From: Isurus oxyrinchus
Taxonomy: Eukaryota
Length of the DNA stretch: 64,000 bases
Assembly (NCBI GenBank): GCA_026770705.1
Contig: JANJGN010000020.1
Location: forward strand, 61,566,001-61,630,000
Direction: 5' to 3'
Every line of letters begins with the position of its first letter. Within the stretch, counting starts at the first letter, position 1. The notes under the pieces are model-generated. The model had not been told where the DNA came from. It did no database searches and saw nothing but the letters and a program-made list of their open reading frames with translations. Positions 6,448 to 46,923 of this stretch are shown here, in pieces. The position numbers and the translations under genes are program-made.

Positions 6448-9400
6448 AATGAATCAAAACCCATGCACCATATGATGGTTGCCTTGCTTTTCTGCTCTCT
6501 ACGAAAAGTGTGAAAGTTTCCAATGCTACCGCAGTATTGTTTCCAGTTTTCCATTATGTAATGCCCATTTAATTGCATCAAAGTTGGCACCTGTGATGCA
6601 AACATGTGGTGATTTTGACAATGGCTAACTTATGGAAGAAATTTTATTACACTCCACTCTCCCATTTAACTGTTTTAAAGTAGGAATGGCTTTTAATATC
6701 TTGAAAAAAATTCCAAGATTTTACTATACTAGAGCAGGATGAATACTTTGGAATTTCTGATAGAGCTTTGAAGGTTATCTGATCAATTCTGGGAGAAGAT
6801 GTTTATATGTGCTCATTTTGAACACTTTACCTTAAGTATGTTGTTTCCCACTCTTCCTTCCCCATTAAATACAATTGAGATACTTTGAAGGAGCTGAAAC
6901 CAGAAAGCATCTCCCATCAAAGGTTATGTGCTCATAAAAGCACAGAGGGTTTTCTCCAACTGAGTATAGTAGCTTTCAGTCAAAGGAGCTTCTATAAATA
7001 ATGTTGCATTCTACATATTGTGTAAGGAACTGGTATCATACATAACAAACCTTTGTAAGTCTGTAGCTGGTCTATCTGCTTCAAAGATTAGTGTGCATCG
7101 GTGAAGATGGGCACCTAACTTGTGTGATTCTTCTGATTTTAAACAATGTGTCATCTGAAGTGACTGATGAGGATTTCTCAACCAGTTTCAAAACCAAATC
7201 TTAGATGACTGTAACTGTGCTCCAGGTGAAGATTTTTCATAAAGAAAAATCAAATAAAAGTACCTGTTGGAAAAATTCTGGAACAGCTGTTATTAATGTG
7301 AGGTGTAAATTGGATTCAATGTATCATTTGCTTTATAGAAAATTAATTATGAGAAAAGCATTCTACTGGGGTAATCTATGCATTGTTGCTATTTTTTTAA
7401 TAGATGTAATATTCTCTCCTTGCCTTCTTTTGGCAATCGCCATGTCACAAACCACCCTGGCCAGGAAAGTAAGCAGGGGATCTTCTTCTGGCACTGCAAC
7501 TCTGTTCTGGGAGCCCAGCCAGTATAGAGCTTTATGTTTCATCTCTGGGTTCAGCATCCAGGAGTAGGAAGGATGCCAATACTTGCTAAGGGGAATCTGA
7601 GTCGGCTGGAGACACACTTGTCAGATATTTTATCCAAGCAAGTGTTTTTCTAACCAGGAGATCTAAAGTGGTTTTGTTTCCACTCACAAACCAGAATATT
7701 CCTTTTCTTTTAATATATAATTTCTATGTTTTTGGGAGAGATCTCAATACCTAACCTGTTCACTCCCCATGTTAACGTTTGGCTTTTGGAGAACATCGCT
7801 CAGTCTGACAGCTAGATATTCGAACACACCACTGTAAGAAATGAAGGATGTGGATTTGTGCTCTGAAGCTGTGTTTCTGAGGCCAGGTGTTTTCCCACAG
7901 CAATTGCTGGAGAGCTGCAGACAAATCATATGTGAGGCCTCTCATATAATTGCTGGTGAGCTGCATAGATAAAGACTGAGATATAGGTAGCATTCAGGTT
8001 TTCACTCAGGAAATAGTGGATAGTATGATAGGATCTAAAAGGAGGGAATTTGATGAAGCATTATTGAGAAACAGTGTCAAATGTAAACCAAATACTAGTT
8101 CTTAATGTTAATGGCCTTTGTGACAGCAGAATGACTTTCCCAGCTAAAGATGAAATTTTGTGAATGTACACCTAATGCATGTGCGCTGCCCTATGCTGAC
8201 TGGATGCACTTCAGGGCAGGATTTAGTTCAGGGTGAATTTGCCACCTTCTTAAATTAATTTGGAAGCAGTTGGAGCATGTAATCGATATTTTTTCACGTT
8301 AGGTTAATTAGTCTTGGTAGAGTTTAGAGGAAGGTGTCCACATGTTAATGACTCACAATACCTGCATTTGAATACAACGATATAATTTAATGCCTGTCAT
8401 TTCCTGAAGAGGATGAAAAACTGGGATAATTTGCACAGGTGCACAGATGCATCCAGACACTTTGTTAACAGAATGCATGCCACTGTCTTGACTTAAGCAG
8501 ATTGAAATGAAACTTGTGCAACTGCAGCACTAATCAACTGTTTTACAAAGGTCAATGGAATGGCAAAATTAGGTGTAACCATTTATCGTTGGGATATGAG
8601 TTAAGACCAAGAGCTTGATGACTTTTCTCTGGCAGCTGCCAGTATTCCAGAGTGGAATTAATGTGGGCATTTAAATCAGCTCCCAGTGAATGTGGCCTTA
8701 CAAACCATCGCTCAAGCATCATTCTGAATTGTTGAGCCACTACTTTCTAAACCATCCTTTAAGCTACATGCTAGGTAGGTTGAAAGACATTAAGACCTGC
8801 ACCGAATGCATAATACATTCCCCTCAATAAAAGTGTGCTACAGGTTTGGCCACTGAGGACTACAGTATTAATGCAATTTATATTTTGCGAAAATGAGAAA
8901 TTACTTCCCAATGCCTTTGTGGGTTAATATACTGTGCATTATAGTACTGACTCAAAAATACCAAGAAGGTGCAAGATTCAGTTTCTCCAGTCTCTTCTGC
9001 ATTTGCTAATTAGGTACAGAAGACTATCTGTGCCTATGGGACCATGTCCCAAAAAGTACTTTAGTGAAAAGAAAGTATCGTTTTGGGGGGGGTGGGGTAT
9101 GAATAAACTTTAAATAATGGATATTGAGAGAATGAACACAGAGAAGAAAAAGACAGTGGAAAAAAATAGACCTTAAGAAAATTAAGTCAGGATCCACAGA
9201 AGCAAAATAAACTGAAAACCAGGGAATGCCAGGGAGAACGGTGTCACTGAATAAGTGGCAGCCTATCTCAGGCATCATGCCATAAACCTAGACTTGTTCC
9301 TACAACTTTAAGCGGAATTCAGGATTAAACTCTACTTGAGCAGGTGCAATCATGCAAACTTCATGCCTTTGTACAAAAATAAAGATATTGTGTGTGTATT

Positions 9401-9853
9401 AATTATTTCTATTTATTCAATAAACTAAAGATTTCTAAAAGCTTTTGTTCAGCTCATTACCGGGAGCTTGCTTTGTTAAGCAAGTTTTCCATTTCCTTAT
9501 GCAGGGTGAACTGCTTGGCTTATGGTCTTTGCAGTTCCATTGAATGAAAAGGCATTTGACTCAAGTAAATGCTGTCAGCATAGAACAATCAATGTAAGTT
9601 TATAATAGCTGGCACAAATTCAATAGTCTCCTAAGAGGCTGTAGAAAAGAGTGTGTGAAAAATGGAAATGTCATATTAGAGTAGTGGGGAGTATTCACTT
9701 AAGGTCAGTGACTAAGATTCATTGCTAAATTTACGTGGAGAATGCTTTCTGTTGCATACAGATGAACATTTTCACATTTGTAGCAAATTTTGGATTTCAG
9801 ACTTTTGTTGGTCCTTGAGATGTTTATTTTTCTCTGAGAAGTAAAATTAGTTA

Positions 9854-9887
9854 AGCAGTACTGGTGTTGTGCCACTAGATGTCACTG
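9854..9887 (+). promoter_or_regulatory. Candidate CTCF site with upstream motif
   Basis: GCCACTAGATGTCACT resembles the CTCF core CCACYAGRKGGCRC. It is preceded at roughly the expected spacing by AGCAGTAC (U-motif-like) and lies in apparently unique sequence. Motif match only. Confidence 0.4.
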
Positions 9888-10065
9888 GTACAGTTAAATG
9901 AAATGCAATAATAAATTGATTTTTTCCCCCTTCCCCGGCCCCCCATGTCACCCCACCACCAACAATTTGGTGCTATGACCTTTCAGATGCTTTACAGTTC
10001 TACTTTGTAATTCATCCTGTATGTGTGACATTAAAAAGATATGAATAGTGAGGACTAGTTGACAC

Positions 10066-11060
10066 ACAACTTACATTTAAAGGGCACCTTTAACATAATA
10101 AAACATCCCAAGGTGCTTCACAGGGACATTATAAAACAAAATATGATACCAAGCCACAGATGATCAAAAGCTTGGTCAAAGAGGAGGTTTTAATGAGTAA
10201 CTTAAAGGAGGGAAATGAGATAGAGAGGTGGAGACATTTAGGGAGGGAATTCCAGAGCTTAGGGCCTGGAGAACTGAAAACGTGGTCACCAGTGGTGGAG
10301 CGATTAAAATAGGAATGCACAAGAAATCTTAGAGGAGTGTAGATATCTTGAAGGGTTGTGGCATAGGAGGAGATTACAGATATTGCGAGGGGCAAGGCCA
10401 TGGAAGGAATTGAGAACAAGGATGAGAATTTTAAATTCACAGCATTACAAGGCCAATAACCAGTGTAGCTTAGCAAGCACACGTGTGATAGGTGAATGGG
10501 ACTTGGTGCAAGTTAAGACAAGTGCAGCAGAGTTTTGGATTACCTCAAGCTTATGTAAGGTAGAATGTGGGAGACCAGCTAGGAGTGCATTAGAATAGTC
10601 AAGTCTAAAAGCAACAAAAGCATGAATGAGGTTTTCAGCAGCAGATGAGCTGAGACTAGTGAAGTTGAACGATGTTATGAAGGTGGAAATAGGCAGTCTT
10701 AGTGATGGCAGGAATATGAGGTTGGAAGCTCAACTTGGTGTCAGGTGTGTGTGACACCAAGGTTGCAAACAGACTGGCTTAATCTCTGACTGTTGCCAAA
10801 GAGAAGGATGGAGTCAATAGCTAGGGAAAGGAGTTTGGACCGAGGTCGAAACAATGGCTTCAGTCTTCCTAATATTTAATTGGGGGAAATTTCTGCTCAT
10901 CCAGTATAAGATTCTGAAAAGCAGTCTGTTAATTTGGCAACAGTGGAGGAGTCAAGAGAGGTGGTTTCGAGGTAAAGCTAGGTGCTTTGCTTTCGGATTA
11001 TGTCACTGATTGGCAGCACGTAAATTAAAAATAGGAGAGGGCCAAGGAAATATTGGAGGT
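10066..11060 (-). mobile_element. L2-type LINE 3' portion
   Basis: The minus-strand ORF contains GDHVFSSPGPKLWNSLPKCLHLSISFPSFKLLIKT, typical of the L2 ORF2 C-terminus. The 3' tail resembles fragments at 31.3-31.7 kb and 47.4 kb. Confidence 0.75.
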
Positions 11061-13022
11061 ATGTCTGAGTTAAGACTTGACTTGAATGTAGGATTTTAAA
11101 TATTAGTTTCTGATCCTAACACCCAATGTATTTTTTTGGCTATAGGATTTTGCCCCATCTCTGCACCCTCGCACCCTTCATACATGCTGATCTGAATGAT
11201 AAATTAAGCCCTGGTGCTTGAGCCCTGCTCGATCTCCTGTATACTGTGTTTCCTCAACTGAAAACCTATAGGGTATAATTTTCCTCAACATTTTTTTTTT
11301 GGTGAAAGAGAAGAGTTTGTCTTTTCTTGAAATTAACAAAAATGGCTTCACTATTGCCTTCAAACCTTAAATAAAACAAGTTTGATCCTCCAACTCTGCT
11401 GAATTATTATCAGTTGAGTTGTGCTGGAAGAAACCTGGCATAGGCAAACCATGTTCTCATGGGAGGAAATTGATGGCTGGGTCATTCTTATGCAGCCTTT
11501 AATGGCTGGCTGATTAATGGGATTTTGTGGTTGGCAACAGGAATTTTGTGGCTCAGGAAGAAGAGGAGAACATTAGAGAATAATATTTTTAAAGTGATTG
11601 AGAAAATTATTTTTTGTGTGATGAAATCACACTCAAAATCTGAAGCTCCAGGCTTGGTGGAGGTGCCAAGGTCCATAGGCCTACATATTTTGAAAATACT
11701 CATTTTTATCCAATTATATTGATTTACACAAATATGGTTTCTATAGGAAATAACAGGAACTCAACTGAGACTTTGGACTTTTACTCAATCAAACAGATTG
11801 CACTGTTCAAAATCAGCTGTCTGTGTGAGAGGTCTGTTACTGTGTTTTTCAGGTGGTGCAGAAAATAGTTAGCCTGTGATCTTTGGATAGAGAGACATTT
11901 CATGCATTCTGCCCTTATGCAATGTGACTGTATGAATAACACATTTTAAAAGAGATGTCCTTGAAAGCTTCCACATATGCATGCAAGATTATAGATTTTT
12001 AACAAAAATTCTCCTCTCACCCCCAAATACACTTTAAGTATTTCTGTTGTTTTTTTTTGCTTACAGGTTATTTTGGTAGTATTGTTTCTTTTATTTGTAT
12101 CCATTATATAATTTTATTAAGAGCTAATCTATTTTTCACATGGGGAACAAAGATTTCTCAAGGTCAGCTCACAAAAAGTAGAATAAGTTTTCAGTATCTC
12201 ACTGGGTCAGTCCACTGCTTTGAATATTCCCTACCTGTTGTAAAATCATACAGCATGACCGTTGGGTTATATTGCTATCATCATTTGAGATTATATTATC
12301 TTACCATTTTCTTCATGATAGTTTATGTAAAACTATTGCTTCGGTTAGTGGTTGTCCACACATTCATTTTCTTCTATCTCACGAACAGCTCCAGCAACAT
12401 CTACCATACAATAGGTGAGGGAACTATCACTAAATCACTACCTATTGCAAGCTAGTTATCTGTGTATCGCCATAATACCCTATTTGTTGACTCCTGGAAG
12501 CCTATTAATTGCTAATGATGCTGGGACATGAAAGGGAGTGGTGCAGTTTTTTGGCATGATGTCTGTCAGCTTTTTCCTTTTCATATGGATGCAGTTAAGT
12601 GGGCCTCTTTGGAATGTAATTGGGGGATGAACGGGTGGGAGAAGGACTGCCTTGAGCTATCCCAGAGGAACACCAACAAGGCGTGACTCCAACATCCCAG
12701 GCACATTATTTATTTAACCAAGAGAATGTGGTTTTTTGAGTGAACATCAAAGTTTGTCTAACACACCATAATTTAAAGCAATGACATCTAAACCGGATAA
12801 AGGCTAAGAGATGGCTGACGAGCTGTTTTTTTTGAAGTATTGTTCCCCTCACAGATATTCCAAAATAGCTAATTGTTTTTTTATTGAAACAAAGTGTATA
12901 ACGTTTCCCCCAACATTAAAGCAAATTACCTTGGGGTGTGTAAAAATACAATGCACTAAAGATATAACAGTGCCCACCAATAAGTGTGAGGACACAGGTC
13001 CATTCTCTCCATCCTATGTATG

Positions 13023-15214: not shown

Positions 15215-16470
15215 AAATCATGTTTAACCAATTTATTGGAGATCTTTGAAGAAGCTGTGGATGAAGGGGAGCCTGTAGACATACTGTACTCGGATTTCCA
15301 GAAGGCATTTGATAAGGTACCACAGCAAAGGTCATTGTGGAAAATAAAAGCTCATGGTATAGGAGGTAACATATTAACATGGATAGAAGATTGGCTGGCT
15401 GGCAAAAAACAGAGTATGCATAAATGGGTCTTTTTCTGATTAGCAGGATGTGACGAGTGGCGTCCTGCAGGGGTCTGTGCTGGGGCCTCAGATTTTTACA
15501 ATTCATATCAATGACTTATATGAGAGGAGTGAAGGCATGGTAGTTAACTTTGCAGATGACACAAAGATTGGTAGGAAAATATATTGTGAAGAGGACATAG
15601 GAGGCTGCAGACAGATATAGATAGGTTGAGTGAGTGGGCAAAAATCTGATCGATGGAGTATAATGTTGGAAAATGTGAAGTTGTTCACTTTGGCAGGAAG
15701 AATAAAAAGCAGAGTATCACTTAAATGGAGAAGGGCTACAGAATTCTGAGGTGCAGAGGGATCTAGGTATTCCAATGCATGAGTCTCAAAAATTTAGTTT
15801 GCAGGCACATCAAGTAATTAAGAAGGCTAATGGAATGCGATCCTTTATTATGAGAGGAATTGAACATAAAAGTAAGGATGTTATGCTTCAGTTATACGGG
15901 GCACTGGTGAGGCCACATATGAAATACTGTGTGCAGTATTGGGTCTCCTTATTTAAGGAAGGATGTAAATGCATTGGAGGCAGTTCAGAGGAGGTTTACT
16001 CGATTGATGCCTGGAATGAGCCGGTTGGCTGATGATGAAAGGTTGGACAGACTGCGTTTGTTTCCACCGGAGTTTAGAAGAGTGAGTGGTGCCTTGATAA
16101 AGTATATTAGATCCTGAATGGTCTTGACAAGATGGACGTGGAAAGGATGTTTCCTATTGTGGGTGAGTTCAGGACTAGAGAGCACTGTTTTAAAATTAGA
16201 AGTTGCCCTTTTAGGACAGAGATGAGAATTTTTTTCTCTCAGAGGGTCACGTGACTTTGGAATTCTGCCTTAGAAGGCAGTATAGGTGGGATTATTGAAT
16301 ATTTTTAAGGCGACAATAGATAGATTCTTGTTAGGCAGGGGAATCAAAGGTTATTGGAGGTAGATGGGAATCCAAAACACAAACAGATCTGCTGTGTCTT
16401 ATTGAATGGCGATGCAGGCTCCAGTGGCCGAATGGCCTACTTCTCCTATTTTGAATATTCGTATGTTTGT
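15215..16470 (+). mobile_element. CR1 LINE, 5'-truncated, frameshifted RT plus 3' UTR
   Basis: Motifs DFQKAFDKVP, QGSVLGP, NFADDTKIG and SPYLRKDVNALEAVQRRFTRL are spread over several frames. Confidence 0.9.
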
Positions 16471-17815: not shown

Positions 17816-18734
17816 GGACAGAATCATCCCAGATTTGCACTAAGTGCGGTAGCAGGCGTGAAAAAAGATATTTTGACGGTGGGTTTTCACGCCATATCAT
17901 CCCCTTCCTGCCTCACAAATTATGCAGTCACAGGAAACATGCTGGATCGCTGGCGACAGGCCTCCAATTCGCTCTGCATGCCGTTACCTTGCTGCTTCCT
18001 CACGCTGGGCGCCATATTTAAAATGCAGCCATGCGCACAATTCTCAATGCCTGAAGCCCAGAACTGCTTTGTTGAAGACATGGACCCAAAGCCAGGAAGA
18101 TTGCAGCCCCTCCGATTTAGTGATACATCCCTGGGACAGCTTCTGGACATCGTGGAGGCCTGTCGCGAAATCCTCTACCTCCGATCTGGCTGCAGGAGGC
18201 CCATCAGTCTCACCATTTCGGCTTGGGAGTTGGTGGCAGAGGTAGTCAGTGCACAGAAAGGGTCGACCATCCAGTGCAGAAAATGGATGGATTATCTCAT
18301 CCGTGCCGCCAGGGTAATTCAACCATCTCATCAATCTCAACTCACCCACTCACAAGCCCATCACACATTCACAGGCATCTTCCTCACTGCCAGCTCAAGG
18401 GACATCATCACTCACTCTCTCACACACACCCTCACATTTCCATCTGATCTCATCTCCTTTGGAGATTGCATCCTCATGCTGTTCATGGCTCCACTCAGCA
18501 CACACGCATGCCTGGCATTCTTCTCATTTGGCATACATCTTGATGAGATGCTAAAGTATTGAAATTAGGGTCCTGACATGCAGTGGTGGGAAACACGGCC
18601 CACCATTGACAGGTGGAGTGGACGATCAGAAACAGGTTTCATGACAGCGTGATACCGATTTTTGGCCTTCTCTCCATATCATTTGCTCACGCCCACAATC
18701 ACGCGCACTGCCAATGGAACATACGGTTCCACCC
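17816..18734 (+). mobile_element. Internally deleted Harbinger-type element (family B) retaining Myb/SANT exon 1
   Basis: Ends GGACAGAATCAT...GGTTCCACCC with TSD GAT (17813-17815, 18735-18737). The left ~720 bp and right ~190 bp match the two ends of 23221-26939. Confidence 0.85.
18080..18313 (+). pseudogene. Myb/SANT-like DNA-binding domain exon (Harbinger ORF1 type)
   Basis: Open 78-codon exon MDPKPGRLQPLRFSDTSLGQLLDIVEACREILY...AWELVAEVVSA...IQCRKWMDYLIRAAR|gtaatt, matching the RFS..L..V...W..VA..VSA...QCRK pattern of Harbinger Myb proteins. Downstream exons are deleted. Confidence 0.8.
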
Positions 18735-19309: not shown

Positions 19310-20615
19310 GCCTTTCCAAGAATCTTCATGGTTTTGTGAAAGGGAAATCATGTTTAACCAACTTATTGGAAATCTTTGAGGAAGTAACATGTGCTGTGGA
19401 TAAAGGGTGGATGTGGATGCACTGTACTTAGATTTCCAGAAGGCATTTGATAAAGTGCCACATCAAAGGTTATTGCACAAAATAAAAGCTCATAGTGTAG
19501 GGAGTAAAATATTGGCATGGATAGAAGATTGGCTGGCTAACTGGAAGCAGAGAGAAGACATAAATGGATCTTTTTCGGATTGGCAAGATATAACAAGTGG
19601 CATGCCACAGGGAACAGTGCTGGGATCTGAACTATTTACAATTTATATAAATGACTTGGATGAAGGGATTGAAGGCATAGTTGCCAAATTTGCTGATGAC
19701 ACAAAGATAGGTAGGAAAGTAAGTTGTGAGGAGGACATAAGGAGGCTACAAATAGATATAGATAGGTTAAGTAAGTGGGCAAAGATCTGGCAGATGGAGT
19801 TTAATGTGGGAAAATGTGAAATTGTCCATTTTGGCAGGAAGAATGGAAGAGAAGCATTTTATGTAAATGGTGAGAGATTGCAGAGCTCTGAGGTGCAGAT
19901 GGATCTGGGTGCCCTAGTGCATGAATCACAACAGGCTAGTAGGCAAGTACAGCAAGTAATTAGGAAAGCTAATAGAATGTTATCATTTATTGCGAGAGGA
20001 ATTAAATGCAGAAGTAGGGAGATTGTGCTTCAGTTGTACAGGGCACTAGTGAGACCACATTTGGAGCACTGTGTACAGTATTGGTCGCCTTATTTAAGGA
20101 AGGATGTAAATGCATCAGAAGCAGTTCAGAGAAGGCTTACCAGACTAATACCTGAAATGGGTGGGTTGTCTTATGGAAAGGTTGGACAGACTATACTTGT
20201 ATCCACTGGAAGTTTAGAAGAGTAAGAGGCGACTTGATTGGAACATATAAGATCCTGAGGGGTCTTGAAAGGGTGGCTATGGGGAGGATGTTTCCTCTTG
20301 TGGGAGAATCTAGAACTAGGAGTTATTGTTTAAAAATAAGGGGTCACTCATTTAAAACAAAAATTAGGCAAAACCTTTTTCACTCAGAGGGTCGTGAGCC
20401 TTTGGAAGTCCTTTCCTGAAAATGTGATGGAAGCAGAATCTTTGAATATTTTTAAGGCAGAGGTGGATAGATTCTTAGTAAGCAAGGAGGTGATAGGTTA
20501 TCAGGGGTAGGTGGGATGCAGATTTCAGGCTACTATCAGATCAGCCATGATTTATTAAATGGCTGAGCAGGCTTAAGGGGCTGAGTGGCCTACTCCTGCT
20601 CCTTGTTCGTATGTC
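19310..20615 (+). mobile_element. CR1 LINE, 5'-truncated; RT open for 272 codons (19407-20225)
   Basis: YLDFQKAFDKVPHQRLL, GMPQGTVLG, KFADDTKIG and YRALVRPHLEHCVQYWSPYLRKD, followed by the CR1 3' UTR. Confidence 0.92.
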
Positions 20616-22847: not shown

Positions 22848-23493
22848 TTACCTGCTTCTGCCAAAATCAACTGCTGAAGAGAATAGAAAACACATCATTC
22901 CCTAGATAGAGCCAGACAAAGCCAGACTTTGTTAACCAAGTTAATCAAGGTATGTTTTGGGTTAACCTTGGAACAGTGCTGTCGGCAAACACAGATAAGG
23001 GACAGAAGTCTCCAAAGCCTTCAAGCCGCTGGTTTGCAAGTACATAACTGTGGTCACCAGGTAATGTCCCCAAATATAGCTGCTGCCCGCTAGTTTCCTG
23101 ATCCTATCTCCAGTTACTTCTGTGGATACCCTGACACAATTCAACCTGACATGCAAGCTGGAGCAATAACAACAACAATTTCTATACATTTTGATCAGCA
23201 AATGCTAATAACTGGACAATGGACAGAATTGTCCCAAATTTGCATTAAGTGCGGTAGCAGGGAAAAAGGACGTTTTACCTGTTGGCCGCAATGTCGGGTT
23301 TCCATATCGTATCATCCCAATCCCACCTCATTAATCATGCATTCCCAGGAAACATGCGGTTTCACTTGTGGGCAACCTCGATTCACCTGCCACATCGTCA
23401 CCTTGCCAATTCCTCACGCCAGGGGCCATATTTAAAGTGCAGCTGCACGCACACCTCTCAGCGCTTCTTGTCCAGGACTGCTGCACAGAAGAC

Positions 23494-25160
23494 TTGGCCC
23501 CAAAAGGCAAGAAGACTGATTCAGTGATGTGTCCCTGGAATGCCTTTTGGACATCGTGGAGGCCTGCTATGATGCCCTCTACCCCTGCTCTGGGCAAAGG
23601 CCAGCAAGCAAGATTACCAATCTCGCATGGGGAGTGGTAGCAGCGGTGGTCAGCGCCAATGCCCTACAAAAGAGGACAGCCACCCAGTGCAGAAAGAGGA
23701 TCTGTTACACTAGGGCAAGTCACTCTTCTCAGCACTGTCAATGCACATACTCACAAACTCATCTCATTTCCACAGATATCTCACACCACAACGAACAACA
23801 GCACTAACTCTGACCCACACCCTCACATCTCAATCAGGCTCTTATCCTCTGGAGCTAGCGTCCTCATCCCATCCATGACTCCACTCACCACACAAACATT
23901 TAATGCAGTGCCATGTGTCCTGCTCAAACTCTCTCCATCTGTTTTCATGCAGGAGAAGCTTGCTCAAAGCAGCAGGGAGAGGTCCCAGACAAGGGGTATT
24001 GTGGCCCACATTAGGCCCTTCCCTCACTTTAAGGAGCGTGCCATCATGCTGACTGGTGAGGATGTGGACTGTGCCTGCGGCGACAATGAGGTCGGCGGCA
24101 AACACACACTCGAGGATCCTGCACCATATCATCCCCCTCTCAATGCAACTGTGAGTGCTCTCTCTTCTGCTTTTGACTCTGCTGACATGTACTAAACGAA
24201 TCATCTCTAGTTTGCTCACAGGGAGCTCTGCCAAGTGACTGACACCCTCAGCCAGCCAGTCCCTCAGCTCCATCCTGGTCTGCACTCCAGCCAAGAGGGC
24301 ACCTCCTCCATTGAAAGCTGGAAATAAGCAGCCTGGAAGACCCATCACGGTGCTTACCCACACCTTCCACCAGCACAGAGAGTCACATGTTGGCGGGACC
24401 TAGATCTAGAGCAGGCTTAGATTCACAATCTGGTGGTCACTGCACGGACACGTGTCCGCTGCAGGAGGCAGGTTCAGCCGAGTTTACCGGCACTGAGAAG
24501 ATTGCTGGGGAAGAGGCATCTGTGAGGTCCAAGTCAGATAACAAGCCTCTGGATTTGGCCTTCAAACTCATTGTGCAGAGTCAGCAGAAGGCAGGGGAAC
24601 ACCATGCAGAGTTGTTGGAAGCCCCTCAACAGAGTGGCACACGAGTTGGAGGTGTGCATTTGCCTGCTTTCTGATGAAGTAGTGCCCACAAGTGTGTGGG
24701 AAGGATGCAGAACACAATGGAGACCCTGGTGCGTGCAGAACACGGGGATGCGTACAGACCTGCACTGAGTTCCTACAGAGGCAATATGAGAGGGAAACAG
24801 GGCACCTCAATGTCCCTCTCAAGGAGTCAGGCTGGGACCCTTGGGCAACCGAAGGGAGGAGGAGCAGCAGTTGGACACCCCTGGGTCATCCACTCAGGAA
24901 TCTCAAAGATTGTCCTCTCCCTCCAAGTCCCCTTTGCCTGTGACCCCCTTAACCTCTGTCAACACAAAGGGAGCAACTGACCCACAGGAGGACAGCCAGA
25001 GCAAGCCAGGCCCCCTAAGCCTCAGCCCTCCAGAGGACCCACACTGAAGTCACCAGAGGCAACAGGGCCAACCATTGCACAGGTTATCTCCACCCCTGCT
25101 GTGGATGTCAGGGCAGCACTTAGAAAAAGTGGTAAGCCTAGAAAAGTGAAGAATTTCTGA
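23494..25160 (+). pseudogene. Spliced Myb/SANT-like gene of the element (approx. exons 23494-23714, 23953-24150, 24222-25160), frameshifted
   Basis: Exon 1 is SLECLLDIVEAC...AWGVVAAVVSANALQKRTATQCRKR. Acceptor catgcag|EKLAQSSRERSQTRG, donor CT|gtgagt and acceptor ctcacag follow. The C-terminus is basic (RKSGKPRKVKNF*). Confidence 0.75.
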
Positions 25161-25889
25161 TCACAAGTGGTTGCACAAGTGAACACAATTTGTTGCTTTA
25201 TAATCTGAAAATATATTCACTTTCACTGAATAATGTGTAATGATGTCTTTCAGCTTCATTGACAGACTTTGTGATGGCCCATGAGTGATTCTGGAGGGAG
25301 AAATGTGTGTGTGTGGCATGGGTTTTCAGAGTCTCGTGCAAGCACTCTCTCACACGTGCAGATCCTTCCTCCATCACACTCATCCCAAAATTCCGGGCAT
25401 TTTCAATGCTGCCTGCGGTTGTTCTCTTTCAGTTTCCATCTGGGTTGACCTGCATCTCTGCCCACCCACTAATCATACTCCCATGCAGCATCTGTTCCCA
25501 TCCAACACGAGGCCACTTTTGATTTGCGAGATGCAACTGGTGAAGTATGACTTTAGTTTGCCCCATCAGTGTTGATGTCCTGGCATCACCTTCCACTTCC
25601 CCACTGTCACCAACCAGCCAGAACCCTTTTCCTTTGGGGATGTCCAGGTGAAAATGCACATTCACCTCCCCAACCTCCACATTCCCACCCTCAGCGTCTA
25701 TGTCTGCCTCCGAGGCCCCACCAACCACCCTCGCCGTCCCTTCTACTGCTTTCGTCGCCCTCCCACCCTACCAGCTCACTCTGCCCTCTCTCATTCTCAC
25801 CATTCACTCCTACCACACCCATCCTCATTTCACTCCGCAGGAGGCATTGACTCCACAGATCCCTCCTTTGCATGTTCACCTGGACATCC

Positions 25890-26430
25890 ACCCTGACCCC
25901 TCACTCCTCCTCCATCCTCACTCCTTCCTCCACCCTTACTTCTTCTTCCCCCTGGATTCCTTCCCCCCTCCAAACTCCTTCCACCCCAAACTCCTTCTTT
26001 TCCCCCAAACTACTTCTTCCCCCCGCCAGGCTCCTTCTTCCCCAAGACTCCCCCTGTGAACTCTTTCCTTCCACTTGACTCCTTCCTCCCCCCCAAAGTC
26101 CTGCCTTCCCCCCACTCTGAACTCCTTCCCCATTCCAAACTCCTTCCCTTACACCTTCCTCCCCACTTACATCTACCTCCCTAGTTGCTGCATTCTCCCC
26201 ATTACACCCTCCTCCCCTGTACTCCCTCCACTCCCTTTCACAACCTCTTCCCCGTGACACCATCATTATCCCCACCAATCTCACCCCACCCCGACACCAT
26301 CATTCCACCTTCCCATCTCACCTGCACCCAGTGCACTTTCCTCTCTCAGTCAAACCTAGACCTTCCCCTCCCACCCCTCCCCCCCATAACCTTTCTTTCC
26401 CACTCACCGCTGGACCTTCCTCTCCACCCC
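25890..26430 (+). repeat. Polypyrimidine tract with degenerate ~18-bp tandem repeat
   Basis: Recurrent ACTCCTTCC(C)n-type units with extreme strand asymmetry. A homologous purine-rich tract lies at 35775-36295. Confidence 0.75.
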
Positions 26431-27821
26431 CTCGACGATCATCTATTGCAGACCGTGACCAAGGCACTGATGTCCTGAAGCAGACCCTCAACAGTGACCT
26501 TATGTGAGCTGCTTCACAGCAGAGCCATGTCCACATCAATCCACCATGCGGTGCACACGTTCCTCCAGGATCCGATTGCTGTCGGGATCCAGCATCTTCT
26601 GCTCCTCGGATGTCCACAATGTGAGCAAGACCCTGACGTTAAGTCCCGACTCCTGCATGTCACACTTGTCAAGACGAGTTCTGCACCACTATGTTTTCCC
26701 GCCAATGTGGGCAGTACATTTGACATGGGGGGATGATTCTGGTGAGCAGGGCTTATAATGATATGCAGATGTATTAAAATTACATTCTCGACATTCGGTG
26801 GCAGGAAAGGTGGGCCGCTATTGTTGAGCGGAGTGGATGATCACAAACTGGTTTCACGACGGCATGAAACTGATTTTTGGTCTTCCCACCCATATTGTCA
26901 GCTCACACCCTCCATGCCACCCTGATGAAAATTCCACCCAATGTCTCAGAACTGTAGATTGTCCATGCAATATGCACATGATTGACATCTGTGATTGATA
27001 ACGGAGTCAGATTTGCAACACACTGAGTGCCCAATCGAAGCATAATTATAAAGAGTTAGCACGCATAGAGCCATTGATACAAAATCACACCATTATATAA
27101 TATTCATGATGCCCATCTCTCCCTAAAGCGATAGAACTCCACAAAAGACTGAATCTGGAGCCTTTGTATAAGATTTCATGCTCTGTGCAGTCAGGAGACT
27201 TGCTTAGATATTGTAATAGAAAGTATGGAATCCAGTCTATTCTGCCAAGTAAATACTTTGCCAACAACAACGATATGAATACAAAGGACGTGGTGAACTT
27301 GAATGGTTTTTCAAACGACCTTTTAAACATGGCTGTTCATTTTTATTCAGAAAGGGTCAACCTATGATTCAGAGAGAGACAAAGAGAGAAACAGATAGAC
27401 ACTGCCCTATTGGTAGTATTTCTAATTCAAAAACAATTCACTGTTTACCTTAGATTTGTTTATCCAGCTGCATTGGGTGAGTGAAACTAATTATTTGCTG
27501 TGCAGTAGAGAGTCCTAGCTATTTTATGATGTAATATTTTAGTATATTAAGCTGATAAAGTTAATTTGTTGTTTTCAGTTTGTTATCCTAAAAAAAGGAC
27601 TCAAAAAATAATGATTTCTGAGGTAATGTCTGGAAATGTTTATGATTGACATTACTATGGCGATTCAGAAAGTACATTGGCTGCTGGTCCATCCACCAAG
27701 GTGCACTTTCCAAGCGATGCAAAAACTTCTGATTCTGTTTTTCTGGTTAAAAATTCATTTTATCAAAGTAGTCTTGTGCAAATTTGTTGTTCTGAAATAC
27801 AGAAGATAGAATTGACTCTAT

Positions 27822-28709: not shown

Positions 28710-29830
28710 GTTCAAGAAATTGGGCTCATTAGCACCTGATTTTTGGGCACTACTAGTGTCCTTCAAACTTCAAAATGGTGTCTGTGACATGTGCACACAC
28801 TTTGCATATTGAATCACGCTGGACGCCATATTGATGCAGGCATTAGCATATGGGCAGTGAATGCCTATCAGAAGAAAGGAGAGCAGACTGATCATGATCT
28901 CAATCAGATTGCAATGCTGGTTTAACATCTGCTGTACAATTTGGAGCTCAAAGCTCCAGCTTGTGCTATCTCTTAACCTTGCACAATTGAACACAGATTC
29001 AGCAGCATTTATGACACCTCCACCAGTGTTACTTAAAGGCATCATCAAGTACTTAAAGGTTTTTTCTATTTGTTCATGGGAGTGTTGCTGGCAAGGCCAA
29101 CATTTTTTTTTATTGCCCATCCCTAATTTGCCTTGAGAAGGTGGTGGTGATCTGCTGCCTTGAACCGTTACAGTCCGTGTGGTGTAGGTACACCCATTGC
29201 TGGGTAGTTGCTGGTTGGTTTGCTCTGGCTGTTGCTATGATTTTACAACTGGTGCTTTCTATGGTCGTTCCAAGTTGCAAAGATCTACAGGGAGCCATGT
29301 GGCAAGTGCTAAAGGACTTTCTGCTGACCATAAGGCTCCTACACAAACCAATTGCTCCTACTCATTGGTGCATTAGAATGCATTCCCCTTGGAATATGGC
29401 ATAACTTGGAGAATGAACAAGGCTGCAGAGAGCAGGACAAGCTTCTAGAAAGGGAGAGGGGGAGAAGGGCTCTCAGCAGGATGCCGTATCTGCCCGAGCG
29501 TATTCCGAGAGCAAATCTCCTACCCGAATCTCAATGAGGAACAATGTGAAAGACGTTTGTGCTTCAGTTAGGATGTGTTCTTGCAGAGAGCCAGCATGGA
29601 CACGGCAGGCTGAATGGCTTCCTTCTGTGCTGTAACTATTCTATGATTTTATGACATCCTCATTTAAGTCTGCTACCTATTGCAACCAGAGCTGCAACCT
29701 CAAAGCAGGGCAAGGAACATATTGCCAGTGACTGTGGAAGATGACTGTGATGATGAACTTCAATGCAGTTAGGCTGGAGCTGGAGATATTTGCTGCCCTC
29801 TTGCATAAGGGAGATCACAGAGACTCTCTA
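28710..29830 (+). mobile_element. Harbinger transposon remnant (family C): terminus plus transposase N-terminus
   Basis: The terminal ~250 bp is homologous to the reverse complement of 43500-43695. 29470-29790 encodes degenerate RRPY..RVFREQ.SY.NL.EEQC.RRL and LQPELQPQS...LPV.V...NF. Interrupted by LINE tail fragments. Confidence 0.65.
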
Positions 29831-31200: not shown

Positions 31201-31406
31201 TAAGTAATAATAATGCATCTAACCTGCTTTTAGTTGATCACATCACAGCTCTTGTGTCACACTTTCTTTTGGGCATCAAAAGGCAACTGGGAAAACAGGT
31301 TCACACCAATCCACAAGTAGAGAGCAGGAATTAACAGCAACAGCATGCATTTATACAGGAAGACATCCCAAGCTGTTTCACAGGGAAAGGACGACTAAGC
31401 CAAAAA

Positions 31407-31505
31407 AGCTCTGAAGAAGAGTCATATGGACTTGAAATGTGAACTCTGTTTCTCTTTCCACAGATGCTGCCAGACCTGCTGAGTTTTTCCAGCATTTTCA
31501 GTTTT
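31407..31505 (+). mobile_element. Penelope 3' end fragment with degenerate hammerhead motif, inserted in an L2 tail
   Basis: CTGAAGA-A-GAGTC-ATATG-GACTT-GAAA followed by the shared gatgctgccagacctgctgagtttttccagc tail. Confidence 0.7.
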
Positions 31506-32445
31506 TAAGTGAAAGAAGAAGCTATTAGCAAGAGTGAAAAAAAGAGTGGTCATAGAGATGAGTTTTATGAAGGATATTAGAGGATAGAGGTGGGGGAGGC
31601 AAGTGAGAGAATCCAAGGGGGTGTGGCCTTGCAGCTGAAAGTATGACTGACATTGATGTTGAAGGGAGGGTAGGATACATAAGGGGCTGAAGTCAGAGGA
31701 ACAGGCCTTTTAGGGTGGAGTGGTTGTAGAGGAGATTACAGAAGTGGGACAAGACTTAAACTTGAGGCTGTAGGTTACCCAGAGGAAGGGCAAGGGAAGA
31801 TTATTTTTTAAAATTATGAATATCGTGTTGTTGGTTATTTTGAGAAATCTTTCCGAAAGGAGTTTCTGAGCTTAAAAGGTAAAAAAAAGCTGAATGAATA
31901 TCAGCATAAATACAGTCCTTCATACAGGTTGCTGGCTAACAGGAGTTGCTAAGCCTGCCACTGAGAAAGAGCTGGAATAATAATAGTAAGATACTAGCTG
32001 GAAAGCCCAACAGTGTGAGAATACTTTCACATTAATGTATACAACCCTTAAAACACAACCTGGCTGGGACAGGTTCTTGAGCATGCTGAAACTGGGTACT
32101 TCGGCAGATCTTGGCATTTTTTAATGTGTGTTAATTGGGTTATTCTCATTGTTGAACTAATAACTTCACCAGCCAGCACTTTGTGAATGATGGTATTTTT
32201 GATTATTGTGTGTTAGCAGGACTAACTGTGCAATGCAAATCAATAGTGCAAGTGAGGAGCGATATGATTTGATATGCGAGGCAGAGTTTAAGTCACTGAT
32301 TTTTCAATTCTGAGATTTCGGGGTTGAGAGTGTCCTATATAAATGAGATAAAGTTCTTCTCTTTCCACTAACTATTAAAGCTCTACTGGAATTGGGATGT
32401 GGACAGGCATCGAGGGCATGAGTCTGTGCTGTAAAGCTACCTAAG

Positions 32446-33965
32446 ATAAAAGCAAAATACTGCGGGTACTGGAAATCTGAAACAAAAACAGAAAATGCTG
32501 GAAAAACTCAGCAGATCTAACAGCATCTGAGGAGAGAAAAATAGAGTTAACGTTTCAAGTCTGTTTGACTCTTCTTCAGAGCTAAAGAGAAGTAAAAATG
32601 TAATGAAATTTATACTGTTTAAGTGGGGTGGAGCAGGTGAAGCTGGAGAGAAGGCCAGCAATAGGTGGGGGCAAAGGAGAGATTGACAAAGATGTCATAA
32701 ACAAAAGGACAAAGGGGTGTTAATGGTTGTGGTGCTGGTTAAAGGAGGTGCTAATGGTGGCATTAAGGTAAGAAAGCAGAATGTGATAATAGCAGGACAC
32801 TCTGGAAAGAACAACATGAATAAGTGACAGATGACCCTTGTGGGGGTGGAGTGGGGGAGGGGACAATGGTGGGAAAATAGCTTGGAAATAGGATAAAAGT
32901 TGGGGATAAAACAATGAATAAAAATGAAAATAAATAAAAGTAAGTGGATTAAATATAAAAATCAATATTGAAAAAAAGGGATATAAGAAGGGTGAGGTTG
33001 GAGGAGAGAGTTGATGGTCTTAAGTTGTTGAACTCAATGTTCCTAACTCAAAGTGCCTAATTGGAAGATGAGATGTTGTTCCTCCAGTTTGCGTTGGGCT
33101 TCACTGGAACATTGCAGCAGGCCAAGGACAGACACGTGGGCATGAGAGCAGGAAAGTGTGTTGAAATGGCAAGCAACAGGAAAGTCTGGGTCATGCTTGT
33201 GGACAGACCGAAGGTGTTCCACAAAGCGGTCACCCAGTCTGTGTAGAAGAGACCGCATTGGAAGCAACGAATGCAGTAGACCAAATTCAAGGAGGTGCAA
33301 GTGAAGCACTGCTTCACCTGAAAGGAGTGTTTGGGCTCTTTGATGGCAAGGAGGGAGGAGGTAAAGGGGCAAGTGTTACACCTTTGGCAATTGTATGGGA
33401 AGGTGCCGTGGGAAGGGGATGATGTGTTGGGGGTGATGGAGGAGTGGACCAGAGTGTCCTGGAGGGAATGGTCCCTATGGAATGCCAACAGGGGGGTTGA
33501 AGGGAAGATGTGTTTGGTGGTGGCATCATGTTGGAGTTGGTGAAAATGGCAGAGGATGATCCTTTGAATGCGGAGGCAGGTGGGGTGAAAAGTGAGGAAA
33601 AGGGGACCCTATCATGGTTCTGGGAGGGAGAGGAAGGTGTGAGGGCAGAGGTGCGGGAGATGGGTTGGACACAGTGGAGGGCCCTGTCAACCACAGTGGG
33701 TGGGAAACCTCGGTTAAGGAAAAAGGAAGACATGTCAGAAGTGCCGTTTTGGAAAACGACATTATCGGAAAAGATGTGACGGAGGTGAAGGAACTGAGAG
33801 AATGGGATGGAGCCCTTACAGGAAGCAGAGTGTGAGGAGCTGTAGTCGAGGTAGCTATGGGAGTCGTGGACTTGTAATGAATATTGGTGGACAGTCTATC
33901 ACCAAAAATGGAGATAGGGAAGTCAAGGAAGGGAAGGGAAGTGTTGGAGATGGACCATGTGAAGT
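32446..33965 (-). mobile_element. 5'-truncated Penelope-like retroelement (RT C-terminus, GIY-YIG endonuclease, 3' UTR)
   Basis: Frameshifted minus-strand motifs MSSFFLNRGFPPTVVDRAL, CQRCNTCPF, FTCTSLNLVYCIRCFQCGLFY, LGDRFVEHLRSV, PVACHFN and QRKLEEQHLIFQLGTL. Confidence 0.9.
32544..32585 (-). ncRNA. Minimal hammerhead-ribozyme-like motif in the Penelope 3' region
   Basis: The minus strand reads CTGAAGA-A-GAGTC-AAACA-GACTT-GAAA-CGTT-AACTC: CUGANGA box, stem II, GAAA box and palindromic AACGTT. Penelope elements are known to carry minimal hammerheads. Confidence 0.6.
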
Positions 33966-35285: not shown

Positions 35286-36660
35286 GGGTGGAAGTTTCCG
35301 GCCCCGTTGGTGTTGGGCATGAGCAAATAATACGGAGAGAAGGCCAAAAATCGGTTTCACACCATCATTAAACTAGTTTGGAATCTTCCACTCTGCCCGT
35401 CAATGGCAGGCCATGTTCCCCACCATTGGATGTTAGGAACTCCATTGTAATACTTTTGCATATCATTATAAGCCCAGCTCGCCGGAATCATCCCCCATGT
35501 CAAATTTTCCACCACGTCGGCAGGAAAGCACGCTGTATGACGTGCAGAGGTTGGGACTTAGCGTCGGGGCCTTGCGCACATCGCGGACATCTGAGAAGCA
35601 GAAGATGCTGCAGCCCAACAACAATGGGACCCTGGAGGAACACATGCATTGCATGCTGGGTAGATTCTCATGGACATGGCTCCGACATGAAGCAGCTCAC
35701 AGAAGGTGCAAAATCACGGTTGAGGGTCTGCTTTGGGACTCCAGTGTCCTGGCCATGGTCTGTCACGGATGATCACAGAGAGGGTGGAGAGGAAGGTCCA
35801 GCTATGAGTGGGAGAGGAAGATGTACCAGGGTTGGGGGGGGGGTGCAGAGAGAGGAAGGTCTAGGTTCAATTGGGAGAGGAAGGTGTGTCAGGTGGGTGG
35901 AGGAAGGGGGGGTGAGGTTGGGAGGGGGGGAACAAATGTGTTGGGGGGTGAGGGTGGAAGGTGGGAGGGAGTATAGGGAGAAGAGGGGGTAATGGGGAGA
36001 ATACGGCAACTGGGGAAGTAAATGCAAGGGGGGAGGAAGATGTAAGGGATGGAGTTCAGAGAGGAAAAGGAGTCCAAAGAGGGAAAAGTGTCCAGGGGGA
36101 GGAAACAGTCTGGAGGGAGGAAGGACTGAGTCAGGAAGGGGGAAGGACTAAGAGGGGTGAAGGAGTCCAGTGGGCGGCAAGGAATCCAGTGAGGGGAAGG
36201 AGTCCGGGTGGGAAGCTGCAAGGGGAAAATGAGTTCCAATTGGGGAAGGAGTTCCAAGGGGGGGAGGAGTTCCAAGGGAGGAAGGAGTATGAGGGGACGA
36301 TGTCCAGGTTAATGTGCAAGGGAGGGGTCTGTGGAGTCGATGACTGCCTCCTAGGGAGTGAACTGAGGGTGAGCATGGAAGGAGGAAATGGTGAGAATGA
36401 CAGAGGGGAGAGTGAAGCGATAGGGTGTGTGGGTGAGGCTGCAACAGTGTAGGTGGAAGGGATGGCAAGGGTGGTTGGTGGGGACCCGGATGCAATCACA
36501 GACCCTGGGGATGGGAAGGAGGTGGTCGGGGAGGTTAATGTGGCTGGGGATGGGATTTTCGGGAAGGTAGGGAATGTGCACATTCACCTGGACATCCCCA
36601 AAAGAAAAGGGCTGTGGCTGGTAGGTGACGGTGGGGAAGTTGATGCCGGGGGTCACTCTA
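35286..36660 (-). mobile_element. Truncated inverted copy of the family B element (right end plus repeat module)
   Basis: Starts with TIR GGGTGGAAGTTT, is colinear with the reverse complement of ~25580-26939 and is cut off by an RTE LINE. Confidence 0.8.
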
Positions 36661-37480
36661 GTACATCGCAAGACAGTACGGCATCCGTGAGCAATATATT
36701 GACATCTTCAAAATATTATACCGCAACTCCAGCTGCTATGTTAAGACCAGCACAGACACCACAGACTCCTTCAACATCATTACAGGAGTATGGCAAGGCT
36801 GCATACTCTCCCCATTCCTTTTCCTCTTGGTTATCGATTTCACCATGAGGAAGGCAATGGTGGGTGCAGACCTTGATATCCTGTGAAACACCACCAGTTG
36901 AGGGACCTGGATTTCACAGATGACATCACCTTGCTGGCCAAAGAATCACAGGCACTCCAAGACATGACTACCAGTCTTGAGAGTAGCAGTGCCAAGGTTG
37001 GTCTACGCATCAGCTGCGAGAAGACCAAGACAATGATGACTGGACAGCAACAAGGCCCCCACATCACCATCAGGCAACAGAACATCGAGGACGTTGACCA
37101 CTTCCCCGACCTAGGAAACATCTCTAGGGAGGGCAATGTAGAGATCGACATCCACACAAGGATTGAACAGGTCCATACGGTCTGAGAATCCAACACCAAC
37201 AACACGGCCACAAAGCTGCACATCCATGGAAGTACTAAGTGCAATCTATGCCAGAGAGACATGGAGCAGAACAGCAAAGGTGTTGCACGTAAGTTGAACA
37301 TCTTCCGCCAGCGCTGCCTATTTAAGATTCTGTGATTCACATGGAGAGACAGCATCAAAAACGAAGAAGTGCTACAGAGGACTGGTCAGAGGTGCCTGCG
37401 GAACAACATGACAGAGAGACAACTGAGGCTGGCAAGACAGGCATTTCGTCTCCCAGACGTATGATCCGCCAGAGCGACTA
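36661..37480 (+). mobile_element. RTE-type LINE RT fragment
   Basis: FNIITGVWQGCILSPFLFLLVIDFTMRK and LRDLDFTDDITLLA...LQDMTTSLE...KVGLRISCEKTK. Confidence 0.8.
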
Positions 37481-42329: not shown

Positions 42330-43695
42330 ATGTCGTGAGTCTGGCCCCAATGACCTTGCATACCTGCTGTCCACATGCATTTGCCTTTTTCAACAAAAGT
42401 CATGAGCTATGTCATCAAAGGACAGTCCTTGTTGCCCAGTAGCCACTCTTTGGTTTGTGATGGAGGCTCAAACACAAATGTTTTGATGGACTGCCACAGA
42501 ATTAAGGCATCGTGAACGTTGCCAGGGTACCAGGAATTGACCTATACAATACACTACATATGGTTGACCAGCAACTGGACTTTGAGGGACAGGAATCTCT
42601 TTTAATTGAGTTGAATTGTGGCACCTGCAAAGTGGCATATGTGCAGTCAGTGGCACCCTGCACATGGAGATACCTGAAATTATCACAATGCCAGGTGCTG
42701 CTGTCTGACATGAGAGAATAAAATGCATTCACCCCCATTGGAATACAGAACCGCAGTGAGCTCCATTATGCAACAGTGGACAACAAACTGAAAGATATTA
42801 GGAATATTGGCGCTCCAGCCTGGGAAGAGCCAGGCGCATTAAAGTTCATGGCACTTCACAGCCATTAAACCTCCTCTCAGGCTGCAGTTTTAGTTCAACA
42901 GGTACCAGATTTTAGTGAAGAGATCCTTAATGAAGAGGTGACATCTGACACACCATTTCTCCCTGAGATTCAGGTAGGAGAATTGCTCCCTGAACACCCT
43001 GTTACATATGGCCTGCTGCTGAGTAGCCCTTCTTCCTGTCCTGTTCCTCTGCCAGCAGCTTGTCCTGCTTTGTGTCACTGTTGCTCATTCTCCATGCTGT
43101 GGTCCATGGGGAAAACAAACGACTGCACCCATATCAGGGAGCAAGTGGTTTGTGCAAAATCCTTAAAGTTTGGGCAAAGTGTTTCAGGGCATGCCACACC
43201 ACTCCCTGTAAGCTTTAGAAACTTTAAAGAGCTCTAGAAACCCCACTTTTACAATCACAGCAACAGACAGTAGAATTAGTCAGCAACTATACTGAAGATA
43301 GCTGATGATCCCTTTAAATAGCAATGGTGGTGTCTGAGCAAACCCTTGAAGTGAGAACCAAGATCTTAACCATGTGCCACACCATCCTTGTAGACTTCAC
43401 CAACTTTAAATAACAGTACAAATCTCAAAACACTTCTACTAACCCAACAACAGCCAGTAAAAATCAATAACCTGAAAGTAGTTGATTATGCTCTTAAGAT
43501 AACAAAATGCCGGTTTCAAATCGGCATTGTACACTGATTAGAATCACAATCTGCCCATTTTGCTTTCCAGGGATGCTTCCTGCATGCATACTAACACCCT
43601 CACAAAAATGGCATCTAGCGTGGCTGGCACAGGCTCCACTTTGGAGGCAAAATAACATTAAGAAACAGGCACCAAGGAGCCAAATTTTCCAGACC
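42330..43695 (-). mobile_element. Harbinger transposon remnant (family C) with decayed transposase
   Basis: Minus strand: RVFREQFSYLNL, VQGATDCT, YPGNVHDALIL and EWLLGNKDCPL (Harbinger DDE motifs VQGAIDCTH, YPGS.HD, WLLGDKGYPL). Terminus GGTCTGGAAAAT at 43695. Confidence 0.75.
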
Positions 43696-43966
43696 TACTC
43701 TTTCTCTATTTCTGTTTTTCTCTCTCTCTTTATCTCTTCTTATCTTCCCCCAATGGCAGTGTGGTTACACTGGGAGTGATCAAGAGCTCCAGCTAAGATC
43801 TTCCACCCCTATCTTGGGCTTCTTGATGGCATTCATAGTATTCACAAATACATTGGTTGAAGTAGAGCAGTTCACAGAGAAGACCAGCAGCTGTTATCAA
43901 ACCAGTGGCAATGCATACAATTCATGCCGTTTTCTTGTCAACCAAAGAAGTCATAATTATCTCAAT

Positions 43967-44241
43967 CAAAAACAGAATTACCTGGAAAAACTCAGCAGGT
44001 CTGGCAGCATCGGCGGAGAAGAAAAGAGTTGACGTTTCGAGTCCTCATGACCCTTCGACAGAACTTGAGTTCGAGTCCAAGAAAGAGTTTTCTTGGACTC
44101 GAACTCAAGTTCTGTCGAAGGGTCATGAGGACTCGAAACGTCAACTCTTTTCTTCTCCGCCGATGCTGCCAGACCTGCTGAGTTTTTCCAGGTAATTCTG
44201 TTTTTGTTTTGGATTTCCAGCATCCGCAGTTTTTTTGTTTT
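43967..44241. mobile_element. Young Penelope-derived palindromic insert
   Basis: 118-bp perfect inverted arms (43967-44084 / 44089-44206) with a 4-nt spacer. 14-bp TSD ataattatctcaat (43953-43966, 44242-44255). Confidence 0.9.
44108..44146 (+). ncRNA. Minimal hammerhead-like motif (mirror copy on - strand at 44027-44065)
   Basis: AGTT-CTGTCGA-A-GGGTC-ATGAG-GACTC-GAAA-CG-TC-AACT: stem I, variant core (CUGUCGA), stem II, GAAA box and GUC cleavage triplet. Confidence 0.55.
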
Positions 44242-46763: not shown

Positions 46764-46923
46764 AGATAAAAGCAAAATACTGTGGATGCTGGAAATCTGA
46801 AACAAAAACAAAAATTGCTGGAAAAACTCAGCAAGTCTGACAGGATCTGTGGAGAGAAAGACAGAGTTATTGTTTTGAGTCCTTATGGCTCTTCTTCAGA
46901 ACTGTTTTTGTATTTGTTTTTGG
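46764..46923 (-). mobile_element. Penelope-derived short insert
   Basis: Same tail as 32446-32585 with a degenerate hammerhead. Flanked by the direct repeat ttcacattggtg (46750-46761, 46924-46935). Confidence 0.75.

Follow-up and report, generated by a model that had tools for sequence, protein, structure and literature searches.

The window analyzed here, a 64,000-nucleotide stretch of the genome of Isurus oxyrinchus (contig JANJGN010000020.1, positions 61,566,001 to 61,630,000 of the forward strand), harbors at 23221-26939 a full-length, old and dead copy of a high-copy Harbinger family, hereafter family A, which encodes its own Myb/SANT protein and has no transposase gene. Our favored explanation (probability about 0.68) is that family A was likely moved by the transposase of a sister family, family B, and that at the position where Harbingers carry the transposase it held a likely gene of its own, open reading frame X (ORF-X). 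Copies were sought in the 5.0-Gb genome, where each search scored 40-150 of thousands of candidates; each DNA search scored 40 out of 5425-12822 first-look candidates, figures that should not be read as copy numbers.

A Harbinger family with a Myb gene and no transposase

In the window the element reads AAT/GGACAGAAT...ATTCCACCC/AAT, and both the intact termini with their AAT target-site duplication and the three-exon Myb/SANT pseudogene described in an earlier note on this DNA were recovered (Table 1). The terminal repeat of the family consensus starts with G, is perfect over 9 bp and matches at 12 of 14 bases. Among 22 full-length family A copies the 3-bp duplication is identical in 10 and carries at most one mismatch in 19, and the duplicated sites are AT-rich, yet not limited to TWA. 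The 3-bp duplication, the short G-starting terminal repeats and the Myb/SANT-like gene place 23221-26939 with the canonical PIF/Harbinger elements (PMC9179366, PMC4482050), a description that fits family B fully (consensus ca. 5.1 kb), whereas family A (ca. 3.8 kb) is without the DDE transposase. Contigs of two organisms span both junctions of the insertion with few differences, and the insertion is thus older than their split.

The Myb gene of the window copy is decayed, and its exon 1 alone gives only a weak match to Myb_DNA-bind_4 (E = 0.034); the cut-off of Myb_DNA-bind_5 (PF13873) was passed by two of five sister copies, with weak matches in two more and in the window copy. The family A consensus, however, runs through 465 codons without a stop, and its protein is identical to that of family B at 288 of 454 residues (63%). 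Compared at the DNA level, the two genes differ by a synonymous divergence (dS) of 0.40, and the ratio of non-synonymous to synonymous divergence (dN/dS) is 0.62 (0.48-0.80) overall; it falls to 0.23 (0.06-0.61) within the Myb domain and reaches 0.68-0.83 in exon 3, where the intervals include 1.

Downstream of the Myb stop lies a 1.55-kb module in which, as the earlier note had stated for 25160-26750, DDE motifs are absent: DDE_Tnp_4 has no match in the six frames of 25100-26939, although the control at 60600-61898 matches it at E = 4.9e-24. A tblastn search with the transposase of the window found no remnant in the module, 26 transposase queries from the genome gave a best E of 0.09 outside and 0.10-0.13 inside it, and profile comparisons with transposases found nothing. 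Nor do full-length members normally contain a transposase, as the loci picked by family A Myb exon 3 carry the module in 28 of 29 cases and a transposase in none of the 29. Of 39 loci picked by the left end, 20 have A-type exon 3 with the module (one a duplicate, one with a transposase nearby), four A-type exon 3 without it, seven B-type exon 3 with a transposase and one without, and one B-type exon 3 with a nested module fragment; the other six are without exon 3.

The mobility of this architecture, proposed in the earlier note, is established by dispersed, genome-wide copies with 3-bp duplications, and not by the two neighboring pieces on which that note had leaned. What had been taken for a separate insertion with the same module (35286-36660) is the right third of a family A element, which breaks off near 36655 and has neither a left end nor a matching target duplication. 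The derivative at 17816-18734, only slightly nearer to family A than to B, has no module and hence says nothing for the mobility of the Myb-plus-module architecture. A reverse-transcriptase-like 3' fragment of a long interspersed element, recognized by eye, adjoins the truncated copy (36700-37470), and a 1.2-kb direct repeat with 75% identity stands on either side of the derivative (15215-16447 and 19345-20600). Similar family A copies cluster on one contig arm (L121-L124, L128, L129, L134 and L136; G000:C14, 0.8-7.5 Mb), as do family B copies on C29 (10.7-13.5 Mb), which suggests segmental duplication or local hopping. Diagnostic sites in the family A alignments look mosaic along the element, as though subfamilies had recombined.

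The reading frame ORF-X and the rest of the module

The earlier note had seen in the module unique sequence and repeats, had called it an unrelated repeat module, and had allowed for a cargo gene. Besides these, the module holds a plus-strand reading frame under apparent selection, ORF-X, which opens at an ATG (25531 in the window copy); codon-level evidence supports the guess of a cargo gene, and the repeat label overlooks this frame. Since an inserted copy decays neutrally, subfamily differences, seen as variants common to many copies, were set against rare variants, with CpG sites removed. The counts cover 103 copies (132 with those later picked by protein) and leave out self loci, B-type loci, short derivatives, the duplicate L058, the near-duplicates L123, L124, L129 and L134, and the 17816 element. 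In Myb exon 1, the positive control, 28 of 46 common but 49 of 275 rare variants are synonymous (p = 6e-9), i.e., there is codon-level constraint among family A subfamilies. ORF-X appears constrained in the same manner, with 16/27 common vs 122/539 rare variants synonymous in copies picked by DNA only (p = 7.7e-5). When all copies are counted the figures are 19/32 vs 105/471; the 29 picked by protein, taken separately, give 23/49 vs 86/307, a figure biased by their selection. No signal at that threshold appears in four of the other five frames; the remaining one has its third positions in common with ORF-X and is interrupted by five stops. Counting transversions alone leaves an excess (11/25 vs 109/486, p = 0.016), and the common non-synonymous transversions are conservative (BLOSUM +0.50 vs -1.05 for rare ones, p = 0.0008), also within codons 11-148 (p = 0.012).

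The start of the frame adds to this. The ATG is retained in 70 of 113 copies, of which 68 have a purine at -3 and 65 a G at +4, and these two positions stay fixed while -7 to -4, -2, -1 and +6 vary; 1-base indels cluster immediately upstream. Codon 2 is Val in 85 of 105 copies, using all four codons, and the first nine codons, where the evidence is strongest, differ strongly between subfamilies, yet a hydrophobic strand is maintained. On these codon patterns ORF-X was, with high probability, a translated and selected gene, which would have been read from a plus-strand transcript; GC-box and initiator-like words in the spacer ahead of it suggest a candidate promoter. Two presumed-RNA runs and one of unknown type yielded only fragments of decayed copies with no splice joints, which is no evidence on expression.

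As for the protein, homolog searches over 2384 and 7993 candidates returned none at E ≤ 0.01, a comparison with 1.84 billion representatives gave one match at 3e-4, to an unrelated repeat protein, and neither Pfam nor PDB sequences gave any. The same searches of sequences, Pfam and PDB yielded no recognizable chromatin-modifying family. Two structure models concur in placing about eight strands within residues 1-120. Fold searches with these low-confidence models found nothing at E ≤ 0.001, and the best rows (Z 3.3-3.4, recurrently deaminase/JAB-like and beta-sandwich) were taken as noise.

The other landmarks of the module that had been noticed earlier are also present, the ~18-bp tandem array as 16-19-bp arrays at 25898-26217, and the 21-bp inverted repeat, whose arms match without a mismatch in the family consensus (a length of 20 bp was reached in 0 of 200 shuffles) and show no compensatory changes between them. 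By a manual count, about 17 of 42 copies keep the same frame through the array, and a single long plus-strand frame running through it is plausible. The second coding-like segment beyond the array fits a plus frame (transversions 12/24 vs 68/326) and a minus frame (12/24 vs 62/326). Its plus frame, which closes with a stop in 46 of 80 copies but has sense codons there in others, ends near the right end, and among the commonest variants ATTAAA follows it in 25 copies vs 10 with the non-signal form of family B. AATAAA stands after the Myb stop in B and is absent there in A, whose ATTAAA lies near the right end. This plus frame is possibly the C-terminal part of ORF-X; on comparison the two are unrelated. 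A helical-looking minus-strand frame (26540-26770) was considered as a second Myb and rejected, as its ATG is a product of CpG decay and it shows neither a synonymous excess nor a consistent Pfam match. A search of Rfam gave one chance match.

Table 1 Features of the family A element and of related copies in the window
Feature	Position	Strand	Basis and remarks
Left target-site duplication AAT, 3 bp	23218..23220	.	Sequence
Left terminal inverted repeat and subterminal region	23221..23493	+	Common to the transposase-bearing sister family B
Myb/SANT exon 1	23494..23714	+	Mapping, Pfam; decayed: start codon lost, stop and deletion present
Myb exon 2	23953..24109	+	Mapping; family A vs B dN/dS 0.31
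Myb exon 3 to stop	24222..25160	+	Consensus open; frameshifted in the window copy
Spacer, Myb stop to ORF-X start	25161..25530	+	Lacks a consistent coding signal; candidate promoter words (GC-box, initiator-like)
ORF-X, likely gene, predicted beta-strand-rich protein	25531..25890	+	At least 148 codons in the consensus; broken in the window copy by deletions and frameshifts
21-bp inverted repeat, arm 1	25638..25658	.	Inside ORF-X, ca. codons 49-56
21-bp inverted repeat, arm 2	25869..25889	.	Inside ORF-X, ca. codons 142-149
C-rich 16-19-bp tandem array	25890..26409	+	Between 102 and 780 bases long among 37 copies
Second coding-like segment	26410..26736	.	Third-position excess fits one plus or one minus frame
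Right subterminal region and terminal inverted repeat	26715..26939	-	Common to family B
Right target-site duplication AAT	26940..26942	.	Sequence
Truncated second copy of family A	35286..36655	-	Right end, second segment, array, ORF-X from ca. codon 28; no left part
Internal-deletion derivative	17816..18734	+	Both ends, GAT duplication, Myb exon 1; no module

Sister family B and competing explanations

Family B carries a Myb gene and a DDE transposase, whose consensus has no stop in 362 codons and contains the DDE motifs (Pfam). Its consensus ends are nearly those of family A (271 of 280 bases identical on the left, 212 of 225 on the right), and the 3-bp duplication is still identical in 7 of 16 B copies. 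The families are of like age and decay, as judged from the median non-CpG divergence of A exon 3 from its consensus (0.081, n = 106) and the divergence of B (exon 3 0.096, n = 24; transposase 0.085, n = 25). Judging by the near-identical ends and the similar age, family B was likely the mobilizer of A, with its transposase supplied in trans; the ends are, moreover, much more alike than synonymous sites of the Myb genes, which would fit one transposase serving both. In such a scheme the Myb protein of A may have bound the shared ends and recruited the B transposase, which would then have acted on A copies. The strict form of the bipartite system suggested in the earlier note, with a transposase-only partner, finds no support: no such element was seen, and among 20 top-scoring loci picked by the B transposase, 19 carry their own B-type Myb exon 3 and none the module. 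Most B copies have a tandem duplication (unit ca. 140 bp) of the transposase C-terminal region beyond the stop codon of that gene. The transposase at 60639-61863, which had served the note as its comparison, is of a different family, with 39% identity to the B transposase, and 58500-62500 gave no match to the family A ends. An origin of family A by simple deletion from B was rejected, given that the module cannot be aligned to the B interior (best E 0.47) and that the Myb proteins differ at 37% of residues.

Several observations weigh against ORF-X as a gene. The length of the open frame is not significant, as 71-76 of 500 shuffles reach 148 codons; within codons 11-148 the synonymous excess among transversions is lost (5/13 vs 107/464, p = 0.17), and codons 101-148 have none (2/7). 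Many segments, frames and thresholds were tested, some non-coding segments giving p of about 0.002-0.03 in single frames, and the test is uneven, since Myb exon 3, a true coding exon, shows little signal in it. Single-base deletions are frequent at C-runs inside ORF-X, with as many as 10 copies affected at a single place, the in-frame class is not over-represented among the array lengths (9 of 37), leaving the end of ORF-X undefined, and the structure models are of low confidence (predicted local distance difference test scores of 52 and 56), with no homolog to confirm the protein. Family A might then be an ordinary Myb-only non-autonomous Harbinger with non-coding filler, the signal arising from mutation hot spots, alignment noise near the ATG and multiple testing, and a chance-length frame, a signal concentrated in the first 50 codons, the lack of homologs in the searches and a frame not preserved across the array would all agree with this. 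We nonetheless consider it unlikely, as the frame-specific excess survives both CpG removal and the transversions-only count, the conservative changes persist in codons 11-148, -3 and +4 are fixed amid variable neighbors, and Val at codon 2 is maintained via four codons. The inverted repeat, perfect far beyond chance and with arms bracketing codons 49-149, could instead delimit a small nested element or captured fragment of 300 bp that was fused to a short upstream peptide as ORF-X. There is, however, no clear target duplication, every ORF-X-bearing locus examined sits in a family A context, and the conservation of the arms (0.918 and 0.908) is close to that of their neighbors (0.895), without covariation, so that such an origin is hard to credit.

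Two further explanations bring a transposase back into the history of the family. Family A could have arisen by deletion from an extinct or unsampled autonomous Harbinger with three genes (Myb, ORF-X and transposase), and then ORF-X would be no replacement and B need not have mobilized anything. A long history of its own is indicated for A by the dS of 0.40 between the Myb genes, three-gene Harbinger-like elements are known elsewhere (HarbingerS and PHISTA; PMC12730594), and the limited share of candidates scored leaves room for unsampled elements. Yet transposase sequence occurs in 6 of 126 ORF-X loci and, by coordinates, outside the Myb-to-module span, the locus that was followed up (L172/L200) is a tail-to-tail A/B join, and the A subfamilies among which ORF-X shows selection are themselves all without a transposase, which makes this ancestry rather improbable. 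In L200:3990-9541 the right halves of one A and one B element are joined in this way, with two right ends as bounds. The module may also be, on the minus strand, either the heavily rewritten transposase of a further Harbinger lineage or a spliced gene resembling the leader exon of the B transposase. A stop-free minus frame of ca. 145 codons contains GFWLVGD, which resembles the second catalytic motif, a GTGAGT donor-like site and a G-rich stretch occupy the position of the B leader intron, and the second-segment signal suits the minus frame as well as the plus frame. This seems very improbable to us, as the word WLVGD near 25610 is not significant and its frame shows no synonymous excess (3/27), 14 copies gave no Pfam match, no ancestral ATG opens the minus frame of the second segment, and the profile comparison with the transposases of the genome itself reached a probability of 0.4% (E 0.17, 13 columns).

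Neighboring repeats, known systems and significance

The minus-strand transposase at 60639-61863, together with the remains of a Myb-like exon 3 at ca. 59500-60300, is a decayed two-gene Harbinger of a third family, and further degraded Harbinger transposase remnants lie at 42398-43036 and 29455-29568. A dispersed 100-140-bp repeat occurs at 18-147, 31402-31512, 32441-32583, 43959-44243, 46764-46925, 49436-49585 and 59726-59943 of the window and recurs as head-to-head inverted pairs, of which 43964-44209 is a 246-bp, 98% palindrome; one copy (59726-59911) lies within the Harbinger at 59.5-62.4 kb.

Harbinger transposition requires both genes (PMC9179366), but Myb-only Harbingers are themselves published. 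Harbinger-Snek solo-ORF variants in sea kraits, described as products of large deletions, number 452 intact DNA-binding-only copies in L. colubrina, alongside intact two-gene elements (PMC8437027). Family A resembles them as a multi-copy Harbinger variant that keeps both ends and encodes, of the two core genes, only the Myb-like protein, beside a two-gene family; unlike them it is no deletion of its partner, since its Myb protein is only 63% identical to that of B and the transposase position is filled by 1.55 kb of unrelated sequence that holds a likely gene. Similarly, the MADF-only Harbinger-1M_cIno of Caenorhabditis inopinata is an expanded family with only the DNA-binding gene, for which the transposase is inferred to act in trans (PMC13668399). 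There, however, no cognate MADF gene accompanies the DDE locus, the family is active, and no extra gene is mentioned in the passages describing it, whereas here the partner has both genes, no transposase-only partner was seen among the top-scoring loci, all family A copies are old and an extra reading frame is carried. HarbingerS (with a SET domain), PHISTA (TET/JBP) and VANDAL (with anti-silencing proteins) are transposons with accessory genes (PMC12730594) and, as may family A, maintain a gene beyond the core transposition pair; they have kept the transposase and their extra genes are recognizable, whereas ORF-X has no detectable family and its element no transposase. Searches of the open literature turned up no transposase-less Harbinger in which another gene replaces the transposase; subscription journals, supplements, Repbase and Dfam lay outside those searches, so a prior entry, perhaps one without the ORF, is possible. 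What is likely new here is that, in a Myb-only Harbinger, the place of the transposase is taken by a likely selected gene of no recognized family.

By analogy with such elements, ORF-X could tentatively be regarded as an accessory factor favoring the spread of A copies, e.g., by countering silencing or by acting with the Myb paralog of A; we hold this to be doubtful, and the anti-silencing role in particular is proposed by analogy only. The variable but conservatively changing first strand might then be a partner-binding surface. More speculatively still, and in our view improbable as a whole, A and B would be a helper-satellite Harbinger pair in a vertebrate, in which the satellite dropped the transposase, kept a selected Myb paralog and gained a new protein family (a beta-rich domain, a proline-rich repeat linker and a C-terminal segment) with a hypervariable N-terminal strand tracking a host silencing factor or the helper transposase.

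As all copies seen are old and broken, the value of family A is evolutionary rather than immediate. No Harbingers were found in the elephant shark, and the study of other species has been called for (PMC9179366); family A adds to the so far sparse record of Harbingers from cartilaginous-fish-like genomes. Since the proteins of non-autonomous DNA transposons act in trans, coding constraint in such elements should be lost. Purifying selection on two genes of a transposase-less family, across its subfamilies, would therefore point to a self-serving function, undescribed for vertebrate Harbingers, and make ORF-X a candidate for a new protein family; were the helper-satellite pair real, a non-autonomous DNA transposon would be maintaining its own two-protein accessory system.

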